A DNA stretch of 64,000 nt, from the NCBI GenBank assembly GCA_951406725.2, contig OX597819.1, positions 29,946,001 through 30,010,000 on the forward strand, given 5' to 3'. This document shows, in pieces, positions 2,064-63,080 of the stretch. The DNA is from Octopus vulgaris. Taxonomy: Eukaryota. Every line of letters starts with the position of its first letter. Position 1 is the stretch's first letter. Position numbers and translations under genes: made by a program. The notes beneath the pieces are model-generated. The model was not told where the DNA came from, did no database searches, and saw nothing but the letters and a program-made list of their open reading frames with translations.

Positions 2064-2347
2064 TTAAAAACAGTCGACATAGAGTCGATTCGAGCCACCT
2101 AGATGTCTCCCAGCAAAAACGATCTTGGAACTATTTTCTTTCAATTACTTCGTCCTTTGCAATGGTAAGGCTTGAATATGCCTCATAAACTAACATTTAT
2201 CATCGTGAAAATTATCCAAGATGTCTTGTCTTATTTCAAATATCGAAGAAGAAATCCTGAGTCCATGGTCGAATACTTTTCTTGCTCTAGAGGAGAAAGA
2301 ATTAAGATGGATGTTCAACTAAAAGATGTTTATGTTTAATATTGATT

Positions 2348-2555
2348 TAAAATTTTGGCTCAAGCCCAGTAATTTCGGGTGAGTGAGCAACTCGATTACA
2401 TTGACGCGGGTTCTTAACTGGGACTTATTTTACCGTCCCCGAAAAGATAAAAGGCAGAGTCGGTCTCGACAGAATTTGAACTCAGAACGTAAAGACGGAC
2501 GAAATGCCGCTAAGCATTTTGCCGGCGTGCCGACAGTTCTACCAGCTTGCCGGCT
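2348..2555 (-). mobile_element. SINE family A, full length with 21-bp TSD
   Basis: Matches other family A copies; tgtttatgtttaatattgatt is present at both 2327-2347 and 2556-2576. Confidence 0.85.
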
Positions 2556-2586
2556 TGTTTATGTTTAATATTGATTAATAACACAG

Positions 2587-2800
2587 AAGGTGGCGAGCTT
2601 GTAGAATCTTTTGTACATCGGACAAAATCTTAACCGGAATTTCATCCGTCTTTACGTTCTGAGATTGAATTCTACCGAGGTCGAATTTACCTTTCATCCT
2701 TTCGGTGGGAGTGATAAAATAAGAACCAGGTTAACACTAGGGTCGATTTAATCCATTATACACCTCCCATGAAATTGTTGGCCTTGTCTCAAAATTTGAT
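2587..2800 (+). mobile_element. SINE family A, diverged copy
   Basis: Head aggtggcgagcttgtagaatc, core cctttcatcctttcgg..gataaaataag, tail ggccttgtctcaaaattt. Confidence 0.75.
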
Positions 2801-3139
2801 GTCAGTATTGATTAGTAATACCACAAATTTGACCACAAATTTGTATGAAATTTGTCGTCTGTGAGACGGAATCGAAGCTGGCTGATTTTGAGTTTGGATT
2901 GTTGAAATATATGAATAAATACTGCAGCTGGTTTAGTCTGACGGTCTACCTTCCCTGCAACTCCATTGCCTTTTTAAACCGAATATGATATATCAATCAT
3001 AGGATTCCCGCATTCTACATTCTTGACAATCTCACTGCCCTTCTATGTTAATAGCTGGTTCCTAAAATCAGGACAACACCTTAAATTTCAAGGAAGAAGG
3101 TACAGTTGATTATACTGATACTAGTATTTGAAAAGCATT

Positions 3140-4765
3140 TTATCGGAAGGATGAAAGTCAAAGTCAGCTTCAGAGTTGATATGAACTCAAAACGTAAAGC
3201 TACAATACTAAATAATAATGAAATAGTTTTACATTTTGTCTGTCATTCTATCAATTCAACCAAGTCATCGCCCACCTTGCAAGTTAATATTGACGTCAAA
3301 GTTTGGCACAAAGCCAGCAATTTTGGGGGAAGGGATAAGTCGTTTACATCGACCCCAATGCTCTACCGCTACTTATTGTATCCACCCCGAACGGATGAAA
3401 GGCAAAGTCAACCTCGGTGGTATTTGAACTCTGAACGCGAAGACGGACGAAATGCCCCTATGCATTTTGCCCGGCGTGCTAATGATTCTGCCAGCTCGCC
3501 GCCTTTTCTTGCAGGATAATATTCCTTTCTGCTATAAGCAGAGGTCCATAATTCTTGTGGAACAAGTTAAGTGACCCTAGCATTCGACTGGTACATATTT
3601 TATCGACCCCAAATGATTAAAGTCAACCTTGGCGGGATTTGAACATAGGACGTAAAGACGGACGAAATGCCGCTAAGTATTTTGATTGGCATGCTAACGA
3701 TTCTGCCAATTCGCTGCCTTATTACTGCAGGATGATATTGGTTTCAAATTTTGGCACAAAGCCAGCAAATACGTGGGAAGGGGAAAATCGATTATATCGA
3801 TCTCCAGATCTCAATTGGGACTTATTTTATCAAACTCAAAAGGATGAAAGGTAAGTCGACCTCGGAGAAATTTGAACTCAGAATGTGAAGACAGGCGAAA
3901 TGTCGCTAAGCATTTTGCCCGGCGTGCTTACGGTTCTGCCAGCTAATTCCCTTATTGCAGAATAATATTCTTTTCTACTCTAGGTACAGGGCCCGAAATT
4001 TTAGGGAAGGGGGCCAGTAGATTAGATCGACCCCAGTACGCAACTGGTACTTTATTTATCGACCCCGAAAGGATGAAAGGCAAAGTCGACCACGGCAGAA
4101 TTTGAACTCAGAACGTAAAGACATACGAAATACTGCTTTAAATAACAATAAACTTTTCTACTCTAGGCATAAGGCCCGAAATTTAGTGGAAATTTAGATC
4201 GACTCTAGTACGCAACTGATACTTAATTTAGCAACCCCGAAAGGATGAAAGGCAAAGTGGACCTCGGTGGAATTTGAACTCAGAACGTAAAGACAGACGA
4301 ATTACCGCTAAGCAATTCGACCAGCGTGCTGAGGTTTCTGTCAGCTCACCGCCTTATTGCAAGATATTCTTTTCTAATCTAGGCACAAGGCCCAAAATTT
4401 GGGGGGAGGGGCTAGTCGATTAGATTGACTCTAGTACGTAACTGGTACTTAATTTATCGACCCCGAAAGGATGAAAGGCAAAGTCGACCTCGGCGGAATT
4501 TGAACTCAGAACGTAGCGGCAGACGAAATACTTATTTCTTTATTACCCACAAGGGGCTAAACACAGAAAGGACAAGCACGGACAGACAAACGGATTAAGT
4601 CGATTATATCGACCCCAGTGCGTAACTGGTACTTATTTAATCGACCCCGGAAGGATGAAAGACAAAGTCGACCTCGGCGGAATTTAAGCTCAGAACGTAA
4701 TGGGAGACGAAATACGGCTACGCATTTCGCCCGGCGTGCTAACGTTTCTGCCAGGTCGCCGCATT
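3140..4765 (-). repeat. Head-to-tail array of about 8 SINE family A copies
   Basis: Repeated ~200-bp units (atcgaccccgaaaggatgaaaggcaaagtcgacctcggcggaatttgaactcagaacg), all on the minus strand, separated by a recurring TTGCA-GAT-ATATT spacer. Confidence 0.9.
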
Positions 4766-5781
4766 ATTGCAAGATAATATTCAATGATAAAAAGTGATAA
4801 AAAACACCGGAGTGTAATATGTTCTGGGTGGATCAAAACTGAAACTAGATTCGATTCTCAATTGGAAAAATTCACTTCACCTCTACAACACATAATCTCT
4901 AAAGAAGTATGATATACACAGGTTTTTGATCACCTAATTGCCATAAGTCGATTAAGAAAATAACGAATGCTGTATAAAATGGGAAATCCCTGTTGAGCGA
5001 CCATGACGTGAGGTTTCGATTCCCAGCTAGAACCATATCACTTCCTTTGCTGTAAACACCTATTACACTCACCTTATATATTAGGGTTTGGTGCATTGTA
5101 AAATAATAATGCTTATTAGATAAGAAAATGTGAACAGAGCAAAATTATAGAGTGGGAGAATTAATTTGCGAGTGTAACACGCGATCGAAGAACGGCGAAG
5201 ACAGAAGCCGTGAGTAAGTTTCTAAAATGTATAACCCCCTCCTAATTATTTGTTCTTGTTTGGCCCAGGTCATCTGTGATAGTACTGATCGATGATCAAT
5301 GACATTCCAGCCATGATCACCCACCCATTTTCCTTGCAGTAATAGTGTACTTCTGACAAAATTATCCAAGATGGTTAAGTATAGTTTGGGGAAAATTCAC
5401 TGCCGTTTTTCATAAGACGCGCGATCTCGTAAAGTCACTCCCACATTGCTTTCTAATAAGTAAATACGAGCTGTAAATGGATAGCAGATTCCCTAGGAAC
5501 CGAGTTTACGCCCCCTTTATAGAAGCGCAAAGAGAAAGAGTCACTGCCCCAACTAGCTGCTTACCTACACACTAAACGCATTGTAAAAGATTTCAACAAG
5601 TCTTCACTTCACTTGAAAACAACATTTTGAAGCGTAAGCCTCGATCCATTATTTCCAGTCATGGGATTATGTTACTTTATGAGATGAAGTAACAGAAGTT
5701 AGTGTATAATATAAGCATTATTTAGGTTATATCATGAAGCCACGTCTATGTCAGTCTGTGAGAATTCTTTATCTGTAAGTA

Positions 5782-6962
5782 CACAGACGTGACAGAAGTA
5801 AATGGACACACTTATAATCATTAACATTTATTTAAATCTGAAATTATACATTCAAATTATTTATTAATTGTTAAAATGTAAATATTTAATAGACCTTTGC
5901 ATTTTTCAATGAATATTCTCTTGAGGAATTTCTTGCCAAGTTTCATGCAGTAATCTCAAAAGATCTGGCTTTGAAGATGCTTTCTTGATCTTTTTATGAA
6001 GTGGCCTGTCCATTATGTCCCAGAGGTGTTCAATAGTGTTCATATCTAGTGACTGGCTTAGTCATGGAAGCTATTTGTTGCTATTCTCATCCAACAAATG
6101 TGTATGACAAGACGCTCCATCTTCCATAAATAAAGAGGCTTCTTTAATCATTTTACCACTGGAGAAGATTGGAAGGAGTCCTTTCTGCAATATGGACATA
6201 GATATGTCTGAGTTTATCTTTCCCTCACACTCCACCAGCTCTGATCAACCATTGCTCCAAATTGCTCCTCAGACCATCACAGAATAGCTGCCGTGTTTCA
6301 TTGTTGGCTGCAATCTTTTCACATTAAATTCTTGACCACAGTGCCTCCAGACCTACACTTGACCACTGTCAGGAAATACAGCACATCTGAACTCATTAGA
6401 GAATATCACAGTGTCCCAAAATGCCATCTCACCGGCCCAAACTTTTCTCCGCTTGGTGTTGGCTAGTCGAAGAAGGGGCTTCCTTCTTGTTGCTCTGCCT
6501 TAGTAACCAAGTTTGTGGAGATACCCGATAGCTGTTCTGAGACTGACATCAATTACTTCTACTATGTCAGAGGCCTTGCAACGAGGATTATCCTCCACAC
6601 TTCTCCTAGCAAAGAGAAGTGTCCTGCCAGTGGGCCCTGGTTGATCTCGGCAAGCTGATGTAGACTCCTCTCCCTCTCTGGTGAATTGCCCAATCACTCT
6701 ATTAATTGTAGAAAGCGAGTTCCCAAAGTTTTCTGCGATTCTACGCTATGTCCACTTTTAGAATGACCCACAATGCGACATCTTTGAAATTCAGACAGTT
6801 CCAAAGCTTATTTTGTACATGACATGATTAAACAGTCACATATAGAACCTGAAACATAACATAAAAATGTCAGTTAATAAAAAAAAATATACACCTTTAC
6901 AAATCAGAATAAACATAAAACGATGTTTTATGGTTTGTCTATTTACTTCTGTCATGTCTGTG
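5782..6962 (-). mobile_element. Tc1 DNA transposon, full length with decayed transposase
   Basis: TIRs CACAGAC(G/A)TGACAGAAGTAAAT(G/A)GACA with TA on both sides. Minus-strand motifs ELSEFQRCRIV, an HTH ORF (6500-6697), FWDTVIFSNE, FMEDGASCH and SQSLDMNTIEHLWD (DD34E-type), interrupted by stops and frameshifts. Confidence 0.93.
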
Positions 6963-6972
6963 TATATATACA

Positions 6973-7391
6973 CTTTACTCTTTTACTCTTTTACTTGTTT
7001 GAGCCATTTGACTGCGGCCATGCTGGAGCACCGCCTTTTAGTTGAGCAAATCGACCCCAGGACTTATTCTTTGTAAGCCTAGTACTTATTCTATCGGTCT
7101 CTTTTTGCCGAACCGCTAAGTTACGGGGACGTAAACACACCAGCATCGGTTGTCAAGCGATGTTGGGGGGACAAACACAGATAGACAAACAAACACACAC
7201 ACACCTATATACATATATACATATATACGACGAGCTTCTTTCAGTTTCCGTCTACCAAGTCCACTCACAAGGCTTTGGTTCGCCCGAGGCTATACTAGAA
7301 GACACTTGCCCACGGTGCCACGCAGTGGGACTGAACCCGGAACCATGTGGTTAGTAAGCAAGCTACTTACCACACAGCCACTCCTGCGCCT
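6973..7391 (-). mobile_element. SINE family B (tRNA head + CORE-like domain, internal microsatellite, (AAAAGAGT)n tail)
   Basis: Minus strand reads ggcgcaggagtggctgtgtggtaag..ggttcagtccc (A/B boxes), then a CORE-like tgggcaagtgtcttct; multiple copies in the window. Confidence 0.88.
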
Positions 7392-8048
7392 AGATATACA
7401 TCTATCTCTTTTTAGGAAAATTTACTACGTATTTTACTTTTGTATTTCTAATTCAGATAAATTCAAGTTTTCTACATCAACTTCAGTAAAACTCTAAGTT
7501 TTCTTCATCTACTTCGGAAGGCGTCGAAACAGAAGAATCCTCAGATTGTTCGATAGAATGCATTAGAGTATTTCTTCCGTCTCTCAGCATTCTACGTTCA
7601 AATTCTTTCGAAATCAAATTTGTCTCTCATCCTTTCGTGGTCGATAAAATAAAGAGAAAGGGCAATGGGGTGGACGGCAGGATTCCTAGAGCATCGATCA
7701 AGATTTGTTGAGGAGTATCTGTTCCAGTTCAAATCAATCCATTTCTAGTCACCAAGCAAAAAATAAAGTTTTTTTTTTTTTTTAATCTCTAATATTCTTG
7801 GGTCGAGAATTGCAGTCTATTGATCAGAAGAAAATAATAAAACGAAAGAAAATGAAAAACAAACTGTGACAGTTTCTTTCGTTCGATCATTACGTCGATA
7901 CTACTTCCGCAATACTTTGTTTTTCTATCTATTATCACTGAATCATATTTCCTTCGTGTAGCTCCCAAGTTCAATGAACTGGTGCTTATCACCTGGTTTC
8001 TGTACTGCTAAGCATAAAAAATAAACTGGTGATTACTGACTGTAATAC

Positions 8049-8788
8049 CTATTTCTTTACTACCCACAAGGGGCTAAACACAGAGAAGACAAACAAGGAC
8101 AAACGGTTTAAGTCGATTACATCGGCCCCATTGCGTAACTGGTACTTAATTTATCGACCCCGAAAGGATGAAAGGCCAAGTCGGCCTTGGCGGAATTTGA
8201 ACTCAGAACCTAACGGCAGACGAAATACGGCTACGCATTTCGCCCGGCGTGCTAACGTTTCTGCCAGGTCGCCGCCTTACCGACTGTAATACCACAGGTA
8301 AATGTCAATATATCACGACTCGATTTCACTATGCTAATGCTGCATGCAGCAGTAAAATATACCATACTATGATACATATTTCTTTACTATCCACAAGGGG
8401 CTAAACACAGAGGGGACAAACAAGGACAGACAAATGGACTAAGTCGATTACATCGACCCCAGTGCGCAACTGGTACTTAATTTATCGACCCCGAAAGAAT
8501 GAAAGGCAAAGTCGACTTCGGCGGAATTTGAACTCAGAACGTAATGGTAGACGAAATACCTATTTCTTTATTACCCACAAGGGGCTAAACACAGAGAGAA
8601 CAAACAAGAACAAACGGTTTAAGTCGATTACATCGACCCCAGTGCGTAACTGGTACTTAATTTATCGACCCCGAAAGGATGAAAGGCAAAGTCGACCTCG
8701 GCGGAATTTGAACTCAGAACGTAACGCAGACGAAATACCGCTAATCATTTCGCACGGCGCGTTAACGTTTCTGCCAGCTCGCCGCCTT
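8049..8788 (-). repeat. Cluster of three SINE family A copies (alternative-tail subfamily) with a duplicated ~98-bp flank
   Basis: Tail tatttctttactacccacaaggggctaaacacagag at about 8050, 8377 and 8561; 8278-8375 is duplicated at 8788-8885. Confidence 0.88.
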
Positions 8789-10325: not shown

Positions 10326-13300
10326 CAAAGGCTTTTTTAAGAAAAGCAGTGACTTTGAATGAACACCGATTTCCAAACGCTGTTTGGTCTAATCGTACCT
10401 GAGTAAAAAGATTACATGATAGTGAGGTAAGCAGTGATGCAATTCAGGCAGATATGAATACTGGAATATGAATGGTGTATGGGATGTATTGAGATTAGTG
10501 GGATTATTGGTAAGGTTAGTTGTGTCCTGTATTAAGTTGTGTGTTCATGTTGAGCTATAGATGATATTTATTGATGAAAGTTGCCTCTTTATTTAATCTT
10601 TACTGTACTGAGGTATTCTGTGAACATTGATAAAAAGGGAAAATTAGGAAGTTCGGTTTAAGGTTCCTAGCACATCTTTCTATCTATTCACTGACCTGTG
10701 TCTGTCTATATTGTGAGTAGCGGGTTTGCTCCTTGTGAAGAGTTGTTCTTCGTCGGAGTGACATTCTTGTTTGGCCTGTATAGTGGTTTCTGCACCCTAA
10801 GCAGGTAATAGCATGGATTAAGTTTTCAGAGGCACCTACGACAACCATTTTTTAGACCTTAATCAGGGAAACAGAAATGTGAAATGGAACAAAATATATA
10901 TGAACAACCGAAAATAATCCATTTATCAAAGGAAATGCTCCGTACTACACAAACTAAAATTATAGCAAGAGGTTTGAAGTTTACGCCAACCCCACACAGA
11001 TCGAACCCGAATGAAATCAAGGATAACACTATGGATTTTTGCCGAAAATTACGCCTCACAGAAGCGCTTCACAACTACACCAGCGAAGATGACTCAATAG
11101 TAAAAACAAAAATGAATAATGTCCTATAAAAGGTGGAAATAAAGCACTTGATGACTTTTGTGAACACATTACTAATTATCCATTTAATACCCTACAAAAG
11201 CAACGAATTAAATCCAGCCTCAACACAAATGAATGGAAAAACCTAATCGAGTTAAAAAATGATATAAAACTGACCATTAAAGAAGTCGATAAAGGAAGTG
11301 CGGTAGTAGTGATGGACACAGACTACTACAAAAATTTAATACTCTCCATGTTGGAAAATAATATTTACTGAGAGGACAGAGCACTATATCCCACAGAAGA
11401 CACTTAAAAACTTATCCTCCTTACTACAAATACATGGAAAGGGTCTCACTAAAAAAGGAATTGACTATTTATCCAATTTTTATTTCCAGACCAAGTCTAT
11501 TCTGCAGATTACCTAAAATACACAAAATTCCAAGCCAATGCATTAATATTTCTCCCCCTACTGACCTCAAACTAAGACCCATCATTGCTGGTCCTGCTTG
11601 TGAAACCCACCGTTTGAGCAATTTCCTCGACATCTTACTCAACGCATTTTAAAAATATGTGAAAAGCTTCATCAGGGATGATTTAGACATACTTAACCAC
11701 ATCCCGACAACAATAAGTGAAGAAACCTTGTTTGCACCATTCGAACTTGTACACCAATATCCCACACGATTATGGTATCGAAGCAATCACCTTCTGGATG
11801 GAACACTACCCAGAAGAGATCCCAGGACGCATCAACCACAACTTCGTAATTGCAACACTGAAATTTATCCTACAGAACAACTATTTCATGTTCGATATAG
11901 TTTACCAGTGATTGCGAACCTTGTAATGGGTTATCTAGAACTTAAAATATACCAATCATCACAATTCTATTTAAAAGAGGTACTAAGATGATTGCATTAT
12001 ATTTTGAACGATAGCATGGACAAACTCCTCGATTTTTAAATAATACCCATCAATATCAGTAGTAACATACAATTCGCTATGGAACACAGCAATAAACAAC
12101 TTCCTTTTCTTGACATCTTAATTAAAATAGTCAATAACCACATCGAAACGGACAACTATAAACCCACAGATTCAAAAGAATACTTATTATTCAACTCATG
12201 CCACCCCATACACATAGAAATTAATATACCTAATAATCTAGTGATAAGAATCTGTACCATAGTTTCGGATACCAATACTTGTGAACGAAGACTCCTTGAA
12301 CTTAAATCAACGCTAATCAGGAGACATTATCCAACATCATTAATAAATGATGGGATTAAACGACCAAAGGAAATAGACATACAAACATTAATGGAAGTTA
12401 ACCGAAATACTAAACCAGATTTTAAAATACTCCCATACATCCCCACACATAACACTAGAAACAATGAGGGCTTCAACATCATCATCCAAAATCTACCTAA
12501 TCTCACTGGAGATAAAACAATAAACAAAATTTTAGGCTCGCACAAAATTATCAAGAGCAAAATGCAACCGAAATCATAGAAATAATATTAACCAGCGCAA
12601 GGCTATATCTATTAACAACGGAACCAAAAGTGAAAACATACGGGCGGCCTAACTGTGGCACATGCCCCAACTATTAGAGGAATACAGTTTCACTTTCATT
12701 TCAAGGTGAAATATTTAAGATAAAATCAAATTTCACCTGTGCTTCTGAAAATTTAATCCATGCTATTACCTGCTTAGGGTGCACTATACAGGAAAGCACT
12801 ATACAGGCCAAACAGCAATGTCACTCCGAGGTAGAAGAACTCTTCACAAAGAACAAATCCGCTAACCACCATATATACGGATACAGGTCAGTGGAAAAAT
12901 AGAAAGATGTGCGAGGAACCTTAAACCGAACTTCCTAATTTTCCCTTTTTATCAATGTTCACAGAGCACCTCAATACAGCAAAGATTAAATAAAGAGGCA
13001 ACTTTCATTAATAAATATCATCCACAATTCAACATGAACACGCAATTTAATACATGACATTACTAACCATACCAATAATCCAACTAATCCCCATGTACCC
13101 CATACACCATTCATATTCCAGTATTTATATCTGCCTGAATTGCATCACTTCCAGAAGTGCTTACCTCACTTGCATGTAATTTTTTCACACAAGTACTATT
13201 AGACCCAACACCTTTTGGAAATTGGCGTTCATTCAAAGTCACTGATCAGCTCTGACGATACCGTTATGACTTTGAATTTCTGTAATGATTCATAATAATG

Positions 13301-41725: not shown

Positions 41726-41960
41726 ATATTTCTTTACTACCCACAAAGGGCTAAACGTAGAGGGGACTAACAAAGACAGACAAAGGGATTAAGTCGATTA
41801 TATCGACCCCAGTACGCAACTGGTACTTTATTTATCGACCCCGAAAGGGATGAAAGGCAAAGTCGACCTCGGCGTAATTTGAACTCAGAACGTAACGACA
41901 GACGAAATACCGCTAAGCGTTTCGCCCGGCGCGCTAACGTTTCTGCCAGCTCGCCGCCTT
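41726..41960 (-). mobile_element. SINE family A, full length
   Basis: Complete head-to-tail match to the 8049-8278 type. Confidence 0.88.
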
Positions 41961-41975
41961 ATATATATATAAATG

Positions 41976-61714: not shown

Positions 61715-62048
61715 TGCTTGTTTTTGTATATTTTGTAGTTCCATTTTGGTTAATCAACAACGTGTGGAAATATAGTATAAAATCAACTTTGTCCGATACT
61801 TGATTTCTTTTCATCATCATTTTTTCTCTATCTTCTTTAGAAAAAGAAAGTCTAACATTTTAAAACTTACTATTTTAAAGGAAAGAACGGCTGTATATTG
61901 TTCAACTTTAACAGTGGGACCTACGATTATAAATGTAAGTGAGTTGGGCTCAACAATTGAGACTTGATGCTATTCAAGAAACAAGTCTGAAAACAATAGT
62001 TCTATGGTTCAAACCTTGCAAGATTTATTCAAATAAATACAAAGTAAT

Positions 62049-62213
62049 ACAGTTCTATATTTAAGAGATGAGGAATTATGTACATTACTTACATTTGACG
62101 GATATTTGTCCTCATCTTGTTTGCTGTTAACACAACGTTTCAGCTGATATACCCTCCAGCCTTCATCGGGTGTTTTAGGGAAGTTTCGAACCTGGGTTCT
62201 CATTCCTAAGCTG

Positions 62214-62247
<34 letters not shown>

Positions 62248-62442
62248 GTTGTTGTTGTTGTTATTATTATTTAGCTTACTGCCTGGAATAGAACTCAAAA
62301 TGTTGGGGTTAGTAGCCCGCGCTCTTAACCACTACGCCATATGCTCGTGATGAAGGCTGGAGGGTATAACAGCCGAAACGTTGTGTTAACAACAAACAAG
62401 ATGAGGACAAGTATCCATCAAATGTAAATAATGTAAATAATG
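62049..62442 (-). mobile_element. tRNA-headed, hammerhead-bearing SINE with inverted 5' partial repeat and 15-bp TSD
   Basis: TAAATACAAAGTAAT at 62034-62048 and 62443-62457; tRNA-like head 62345-62278 (A box TGGCGTAGTGG, B box GAGTTCTATTCC), (AAT/AAC)n linker, hammerhead, and inverted copy at 62348-62442. Confidence 0.85.
62129..62174 (-). ncRNA. Minimal hammerhead ribozyme
   Basis: Minus strand: aacac CCGATGA a ggctg gagggtatat cagct GAAAC GTT gtgtt; AACGTT palindrome. The inverted copy reads TGATGA a ggctg..cagcc GAAAC GTT gtgtt. Confidence 0.75.
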
Positions 62443-63080
62443 TAAATACAAAGTAATCTAAATGTTAAGTGCAACTCTAACGTGTTGTATCAAGTTGACA
62501 TAATGGAGCTATTGTGGTTGCTTCGACTCGGATTAGCTTTCACTGAGTAAATTTGTCAAAGGCGTTCTAATCGATTTTTTTTATCGGGAATTGTGTACCT
62601 AGACCTCTTTTCTCTCCTTAAGTTGGTAGGGCATAATTTGAAGTATTTGACAACCATTTTTATTAGATCGAGCGAACAAGAAGAGGTTCTTTCGTTTGAT
62701 CATACTGACGTAAGAATTTTGATAAGCACTTGGAGGGAATCATGTTGAAGTCTCCATTTTAGTCATTGGTTAATAAATTTTATTATAGGAGTAATTTTAT
62801 TTTAACTCTACCAGAAATAGTGGATGATCTTGCTGGATTCAGGTTTCGATTTAAGTGAGGAAAGAGGGCGATAATTCCATCCTGTTATACAAACCACCAA
62901 AATATTAGTCAGTCTACAACTAAATTATTCCTGTTCTAGTCAGAGCTATTGTATTCTTACATTTTCATATTTAAATGAGCTCAGTAATTTACTCGGGTAT
63001 TGCGTATCTAGAATTACATTTTCTATTCCTGTCGGTAGGATGTGATTTGAGGTGGTTGGCATTTATTTCTCGTATATGTC

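Follow-up and report, generated by a model that had tools for sequence, protein, structure and literature searches.

A 64,000-nucleotide stretch of the Octopus vulgaris genome (contig OX597819.1, positions 29,946,001 to 30,010,000, hereafter the window) carries an insert that is probably a two-armed insertion of nothing but the pseudo-LTR (pLTR) of a protein-coding Penelope-like element (PLE) of the Penelope/Poseidon type, whose tRNA-derived module likely starts Pol III RNAs that are copied by the reverse transcriptase (RT) of the parent into SINE-like insertions. Such an arrangement would represent a direct route from a PLE to SINE-like repeats, combining a tRNA-derived promoter in a terminal repeat with internal priming, and this priming route needs neither poly(A) nor a defined RNA 3' end. 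A repeat of this abundance, which an annotation pipeline would file as a tRNA SINE, would then be the end of a PLE. The thousands of two-armed insertions also offer statistics on the poorly understood integration of PLEs, with its two priming sites and two cDNAs.

The insertion and its repeat family

Read on the minus strand, the insert runs from an inverted arm through a tRNA-like head and an (AAY)n linker into a 170-nt body with no poly(A) at its end, and the length between the two direct repeats that bound it is 394 nt (Table 1). The preliminary description had reported an exact 15-bp target-site duplication (TSD) around the insert, a minus-strand tRNA-like head with A and B boxes, an (AAT)n linker, a minimal hammerhead with a palindromic helix III and an inverted partial copy of the hammerhead and 3' region. 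All of these were found, with the linker read as (AAY)n, a mismatched B box and a mutated hammerhead core in the window copy, a helix III of sequence ACGU that has no loop, and inverted arms (62075-62167 and 62349-62441) that share 92% identity over 93 nt. The inverted arm of the window copy lacks the 5' strand of helix I and C3 and is therefore not a whole ribozyme. In its body arms the window copy has 94-95% identity to the column majority. ARAGORN made no tRNA call at the insert, and Rfam made no tRNA or hammerhead call, either at the gathering threshold on the whole window or in E-value mode on two stretches. The earlier view of the element as complete did not hold, as its 5' side is incomplete and many copies extend upstream into a PLE ORF.

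Table 1. Features of the insert, in positions of the window
Feature	Position	Strand	Remarks
Target-site duplication, tail-bearing end	62034..62048		exact 15-nt direct repeat
Target-site duplication, tail-less end	62443..62457		exact 15-nt direct repeat
Tail-bearing arm, putative pLTR of a Poseidon-type PLE	62049..62348	-	starts at about -2 of the tRNA-like head
tRNA-derived module	62273..62346	-	nearest to tRNA-Arg among 33 host tRNA genes; no cloverleaf called
A box	62329..62339	-	fits the consensus
B box	62286..62294	-	one mismatch in the window copy, G to T at 62290
(AAT/AAC)n linker, predicted 5' UTR	62218..62272	-	non-repetitive in sister family B
First 51 codons of the parent PLE ORF	62051..62203	-	ATG at 62203; open in the window copy
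Minimal type I hammerhead	62129..62174	-	palindromic ACGU helix III at 62138-62135; U4 to C at 62168, likely inactive
Predicted hammerhead cut	between 62134 and 62133	-	U4 to C at 62168
PLE 'tail', about 26 nt	62049..62074	-	confined to the tail-bearing arm
Inverted tail-less arm	62348..62442	+	body positions 51 to about 144; 2-nt microhomology joins the head start

An insertion of this kind was present in 9 of 60 evenly spaced 10-kb stretches, which corresponds to about 42,000 (19,000-80,000) per genome for an assembly of 2.8 Gb, an estimate that takes in an older sister family, and ORF sequence was included in 1/9 of the insertions found in these stretches. The linkage of head and hammerhead, expected to be constant, was confirmed in 25 of 29 loci anchored on the head and in 20 of 29 anchored on the body, with the query's own locus excluded each time. 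The body arms (n=115) have a median identity of 95% to the column majority. The 3' ends of 266 arms fall into two groups, 155 of them lying at body positions 163-170 and 104 at 130-148, with 2 between, so that the family has two fixed 3' end points about 26-33 nt apart and no poly(A); raw reads and contigs have loose ends at the same two points. TSD-like matches at both boundaries occur in 49 of 75 two-armed insertions, far above the control value of 1.65% among 2000 mismatched pairs, and are 8-19 nt long with a mode of 12 nt; endonuclease-bearing (EN+) PLEs are expected to have a 30-40-bp tail at one end, a short TSD and no poly(A).

An inverted arm is present in 45 of 77 insertions. Among these 45 pairs the longer arm is the tail-less one in 23 and the tail-bearing one in 12, with 10 of equal length, which favours two priming events, since simple folding back of the tail arm cannot produce a longer tail-less arm. 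Inverted pLTRs and a 'tail' are described as PLE signatures in the available portions of bioRxiv 10.1101/2021.04.23.441226 and PMC3846280. A recurrent junction, in which the inverted arm starts at the hammerhead core and is joined to the head start through microhomology, was observed at window position 62348 and at L003, L038, L075 and L081, in insertions whose flanks differ. The inverted arms, which are seen in transcript reads, are predicted to fold as long hairpins (z -14), and such hairpins may be RNA-editing substrates.

The parent element and other PLE-related sequences

Upstream of the head, many copies share a common sequence corresponding to the C-terminus of a PLE endonuclease (16 motif hits), and searches with this endonuclease-coding sequence led to RT-bearing copies. 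At L291, an unbroken RT-endonuclease frame of 569 codons is followed by a stop, about 30 nt, and then the head, linker and hammerhead; the locus also has an inverted tail-bearing arm. The Pfam model RVT_1 matches L291 at E 2.7e-6, falling just below the cut-off, which L292 passes. The Pfam GIY-YIG model gave no match to the parent ORF at E<=1, and the L291 ORF is 24-37% identical to PLE ORFs that bear GIY-YIG. Homologues of the parent ORF numbered 2744, with PF01541 on 3 of 120 among the matches listed.

The last 155 nt of the unit encode the first 51 codons of the parent ORF. An ATG at body position 16 opens these 51 codons, which run through the hammerhead, and in sister family B the frame is kept across an in-frame insertion after the ATG. 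At the tandem junctions L219, L223, L300, L399 and L412 the body continues directly into the rest of the ORF. The 51-aa frame of the window aligns to the N-terminus of P0003 (score 78; 0/300 shuffles; BLASTP E 0.001), a database PLE protein that is 55% identical to the parent; 1 of the 22 long homologues reached 0/300 shuffles with the window peptide. Since the unit both lies about 30 nt after the parent stop and encodes the first 51 codons, the apparent SINE is the parent's own pLTR: judged from these alignments, the repeat unit is the pLTR of an autonomous Penelope/Poseidon-type PLE, made up of a tRNA-like module, a 5' UTR and the first codons. The pLTRs of the parent stand both in tandem and in inverted orientation, the arrangement expected of a PLE. 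Mobilisation by a PLE rather than a LINE, as originally suggested, is thus upheld by the parent itself and by PLE-type ends, TSDs and inverted arms, and an autonomous PLE sharing the 3' segment of the insert, as had been proposed, is present at L291 and the tandem junctions.

The zinc-finger linker between RT and endonuclease is absent from the L291 translation and present in Neptune-like ORFs. Its absence points to the Penelope/Poseidon type by the criterion given in the accessible part of bioRxiv 10.1101/2021.04.23.441226, a placement that follows the linker rather than a tree including named references. Neptune-like elements were rejected as partners of the repeat. At L048 a GIY-YIG end is followed by linker and body, and the body is there in only 1 of 30 copies of that Neptune-like family; across Neptune-like families, 30 GIY-YIG loci and 20 extensions of 10 kb were without body sequence at their own ends.

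The window itself holds a degenerate Neptune-like PLE at 10549-13036, with RT and GIY-YIG at about 45% identity to a 781-aa family and an inverted endonuclease arm at 10833-10549, and related repeats of about 170 bp are clustered at 2336-8788 and 41727-41972 in tandem and inverted orientation. Elsewhere, a young Neptune-like PLE family (L121-L124, L139 and others) has many open 781-codon frames, tandem copies, (TA)n flanks and a coiled-coil-like ORF upstream; a hammerhead pattern search in this family (L121-L124, L139) gave no match. The PLE insertion at L130 has a 766-bp inverted repeat (1620-2385 and 4017-4782), whose 100% identity indicates a very recent insertion. At L010:123 and L326 (minus strand, 3965) lies a further family of minimal hammerheads, which shares the core and the ACGU palindrome, differs in its helix sequences and ends before (TA)n. 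A tandem repeat of 359 bp at L307:2745-4763 (G000:C1:20000001-20010000; 5.6 copies, 98% alike) carries in every unit a type I hammerhead that looks canonical, with two more units on the other strand at about 7335-7700, and is likely a non-LTR retrozyme.

The 5' ends, the parent RNA and the hammerhead

The three best tRNA matches to the head, among 33 host tRNA genes of 7 isotypes, are all tRNA-Arg (z 7.7). Sister family B, which is about 85% identical, has the same tRNA-like module behind its ORF, and its loci (L368-L396, L407) carry this module and the hammerhead with a non-repetitive linker. Changes in the A and B boxes between families A and B remain within the consensus, and box positions have changed no less often than the rest (5/21 versus 8/53). 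Other tRNA-like segments, 66-68% similar to the head, occur in the window at 7380-7326 and 50957-50902 and probably belong to other repeat families.

The 5' ends of the copies were examined in 77 independent arms picked solely by their 3' end. The head is reached by 44 of them, of which 15 end inside it, 20 end at -12..+8 and 9 extend further; the other 33 stop in the linker (23, some perhaps with unrecognised heads) or in the body (10). Thus 20 of the 29 arms that reach head position +8 stop at -12..+8, forming a wall with a binomial p of 5e-19 against the upstream stop rate, where the window of -12..+8 was picked post hoc and the background rate comes from 9 events. The wall persists when head-to-head junctions are left out (14 versus 9, p 1e-12), the 14 arms abutting flank or non-head sequence, and also in tail-less arms (17 stop, 8 continue, p 3e-16). 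The 5' ends overall pile up at about -5 to +5, and the commonest arm start is -5 (21 of 68 arms), a count inflated by a small palindrome at the wall, TGCCC-AC-GGGCA, which could itself trigger template switching. The pile-up supports, as likely, the original suggestion of a Pol III start from the head. RNase P processing at +1 is disfavoured, as a number of arms retain the -5 leader and the head has no cloverleaf fold.

Over about 2.3 kb of sense strand, of which about 100 nt are counted twice, the majority sequence of the parent ORF holds no run of four or more T (T4+), where 3.1-4.6 such runs are expected by four controls (P 0.007-0.032); the count in four Neptune-like families with a similar T content is 4-8. 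Individual parent copies have 0.48 T4+ runs per kb versus 1.6-3.3, and eight more diverged copies have 0.45. However, several unrelated long ORFs also have 0-1 runs (for example L338, 863 aa, 1 run), so that the scarcity is only suggestive of Pol III. A second Poseidon-type family without the tRNA module, as a control for T runs, did not turn up in the search hits. The 5'-end pile-up and the T4-free ORF majority are together suggestive of transcription by Pol III, which may extend over the entire coding element.

In one raw RNA-seq run from a related organism, 8578 of 12.9 million reads matched the repeat, with both strands represented about equally (library of unspecified strandedness), and 73% of the reads on the repeat continue into unlike sequence. 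No pile-up of read starts or ends on the repeat was seen in that run, the cut site included. This pattern fits copies carried in host transcripts and neither demonstrates nor excludes a Pol III RNA. Between 57 and 82% of the repeat words are carried by 20 sequencing sets of 5 organism labels, none of those listed being recorded as RNA, with 14 guessed to be RNA.

The family majority of the hammerhead fits every feature listed for minimal PLE hammerheads in the available text of PMC4209133, and all core positions are kept in 34 of 113 copies. The window copy differs by U4 to C in the catalytic box, a change common to 12 of the 113 copies, and by C11.1 to U; its ribozyme is likely inactive, to judge from the core change at U4. 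Between families A and B, 0 of 34 structural positions of the hammerhead have changed versus 13 of 106 positions elsewhere (p 0.038). No change is seen in the core, in helix II or in inner helix I, and no compensatory helix changes were found between the two families, those in outer helix I being non-compensatory. Of the consensus core and helix covariation that had been anticipated, the core (CUGANGA/GAAA type) is therefore kept in the majority, while covariation was not seen. Its overlap with coding sequence may be the reason why the hammerhead is conserved. Among 79 internal 5' ends, in a sample that under-represents starts beyond position 80, 2 lie at the cut site and 12 at the core start. 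Self-cleavage as a step of the cycle was not borne out, given so few ends at the cut site, no pile-up of read ends and a mutated core in the window copy. In the anole Poseidon element, cleavage is protein-assisted and dispensable for insertion, according to the accessible part of PMC11167929.

Proposed mechanism, alternatives and known systems

The RNA would start 13 nt ahead of the A box, at about -5, where a G follows a T, and would continue beyond the element. The RT-endonuclease would nick both strands of AT-rich DNA and prime inside this RNA at either of two neighbouring sites, which would yield one arm with the tail and one without and make poly(A) unnecessary. The two cDNAs would then be joined head to head through microhomology, leaving a TSD of about 12 bp, and hammerhead cleavage would not be needed. 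In the anole Poseidon, as described in the portion of PMC11167929 available here, both strands are nicked in vitro, internal priming at two sites yields the tail, and the minimal template extends past the RT start sites. The templates in octopus might be solo pLTR transcripts or the 5' end of full-length RNA; if the RNA is full-length, first-site priming would give exactly the 300-nt unit.

A more far-reaching reading, possible but unlikely, is that the whole coding PLE is transcribed by Pol III from a captured tRNA-Arg promoter in the upstream pLTR, with its ORF purged of TTTT, and that the SINE-like copies result from priming at the first of the internal sites, about 300 nt away from the RNA 5' end. 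The head was kept upstream of the ATG at 0 of 6 tandem junctions examined. Were this reading true, the element would provide a natural protein-coding Pol III transcript and raise the question of cap-independent translation, as an autonomous retrotransposon that is its own SINE must translate uncapped RNA. Ribozyme-linked cap-independent initiation is described for fungal virus UTRs in the accessible part of PMC13725137; in the octopus unit the ATG precedes the cut site.

A comparably small chance is given to the tRNA-like segment being an inert relic, in which case the wall would reflect a Pol II start, or a place where the RT stops or folds back on the palindrome, with the short copies as ordinary truncated PLE insertions. 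Palindromic head-to-head junctions in 5-6 of the 20 head-start arms are consistent with fold-back, although the wall remains in the 14 arms that abut flank or non-head sequence. Rotifer PLEs, in the part of PMC3846280 consulted, have palindromes at inverted junctions and pLTR promoters resembling TATA/Inr. The lack of an RNA start in the RNA-seq run and of variants specific to short copies also agrees with a relic, whereas both boxes hold the consensus in two families and the ORF is depleted of T4 runs.

It is improbable that the repeat is an independent tRNA SINE lineage with its own masters, processed by the hammerhead and mobilised in trans by a PLE. Copies do resemble a tRNA-derived SINE in their A/B-box head and in starting at that head (20 of 29); head-start arms outnumber ORF-linked ones in the 3'-anchored sample by 20 to 9, and some copies with a single arm and a TSD have their start at the head (L016/L290). 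However, head, linker and body are all parent sequence. A comparison of 68 head-start with 43 ORF-linked arms turned up no fixed differences, and the variants that arms share are not grouped by arm class (n=108, permutation p 0.73). The variant C82T, at a CpG site, is present in 0 of 41 ORF-linked versus 17 of 65 other arms, with p 0.0002 before correcting for about 240 columns. A non-autonomous lineage of its own, and with it the separate SINE first proposed, thus gave way to a unit that is entirely the pLTR of the parent, with no diagnostic or SINE-specific fixed variants found in 108-111 arms. The 34 hammerhead positions unchanged between families A and B would suit a hammerhead-processed lineage, but the coding overlap may account for them, and cleavage would strip 85 nt that every copy keeps, with few ends at the cut site; the reach of the anole minimal template beyond the RT start sites (PMC11167929, same portion) likewise speaks against it. 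A non-LTR retrozyme, with tandem copies cleaving as dimers, circularising and being reinserted by PLE enzymes, is very improbable: the hammerhead architecture is of the dimer type (PMC4209133, in part) and retrozymes are argued to derive from pLTRs (bioRxiv 10.64898/2026.07.22.740005, in part), but copies are head-to-head or single rather than head-to-tail arrays with a hammerhead in each unit, and the ends lie at the tail sites and the head rather than at the cut site.

The octopus tRNA-Arg-related SINEs OR1/OR2 and 'Twain' may be the same repeat, the head being Arg-like, in which case it would have been listed before among octopus SINEs. No description of a tRNA promoter in a PLE, or of a PLE-mobilised tRNA SINE in cephalopods, was found in searches of open-access literature. 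Such an element is not described in the available parts of the octopus repeat papers PMC13282606 (including a term search of its supplement) and PMC8967140, or of the retrozyme preprint bioRxiv 10.64898/2026.07.22.740005; PMC7229834 and PMC6962438 were covered by term search of their accessible text.

Several known systems share part of this architecture. Non-autonomous Chlamys elements such as MRC1 (bioRxiv 10.1101/2021.04.23.441226, accessible part) and non-LTR retrozymes are likewise short, PLE-dependent and related to the end of a parent; they are separate families for which the available text mentions no tRNA-derived promoter, whereas the octopus unit is the parent's own pLTR. The TRIMp3 elements Cassandra, Helenus and Ajax have a small-RNA-derived Pol III promoter inside a terminal repeat, as far as the portion of PMC10886601 at hand describes them, but are non-coding LTR elements, while the octopus host is a protein-coding PLE. 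The Schistosoma repeats SM-alpha and Sj-alpha are also short and combine a promoter of Pol III type with a type I hammerhead behind it. Their tandem units are freed by an active ribozyme (PMC6765202 and PMC8490949, both in part), whereas the octopus unit forms the terminus of an autonomous element that has been identified, occurs in inverted pairs and has no sign of cleavage-defined ends.

The octopus hammerhead has in common with the metazoan PLE hammerheads treated in the consulted sections of PMC4209133 a CUGAUGA core, an unpaired A before helix II, G10.1-C11.1, the absence of loop 3, a palindromic 15.2-16.2 and a 5-bp helix I; it differs from that set in its GUU cleavage triplet and in keeping the full core in only 34 of 113 copies. 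A close likeness is also seen in the Poseidon element of Anolis carolinensis. In the accessible text of PMC11167929, this element has a single ORF for RT and a C-terminal endonuclease without a zinc-finger linker, which starts inside the pLTR and overlaps the hammerhead, as well as two 3' ends separated by the tail, inverted arms, a short TSD and AT-rich targets. The octopus element differs from this account in its A/B-box module, which lies about 100-150 nt before the ATG, the pile-up of 5' ends and the T4-depleted ORF. It is a member of the PLEs, not a retrozyme, and works like a tRNA SINE without forming a lineage of its own; what is new is the piling up of 5' ends at a tRNA-Arg-like A/B-box module, together with a T4-free parent ORF majority, in a PLE.
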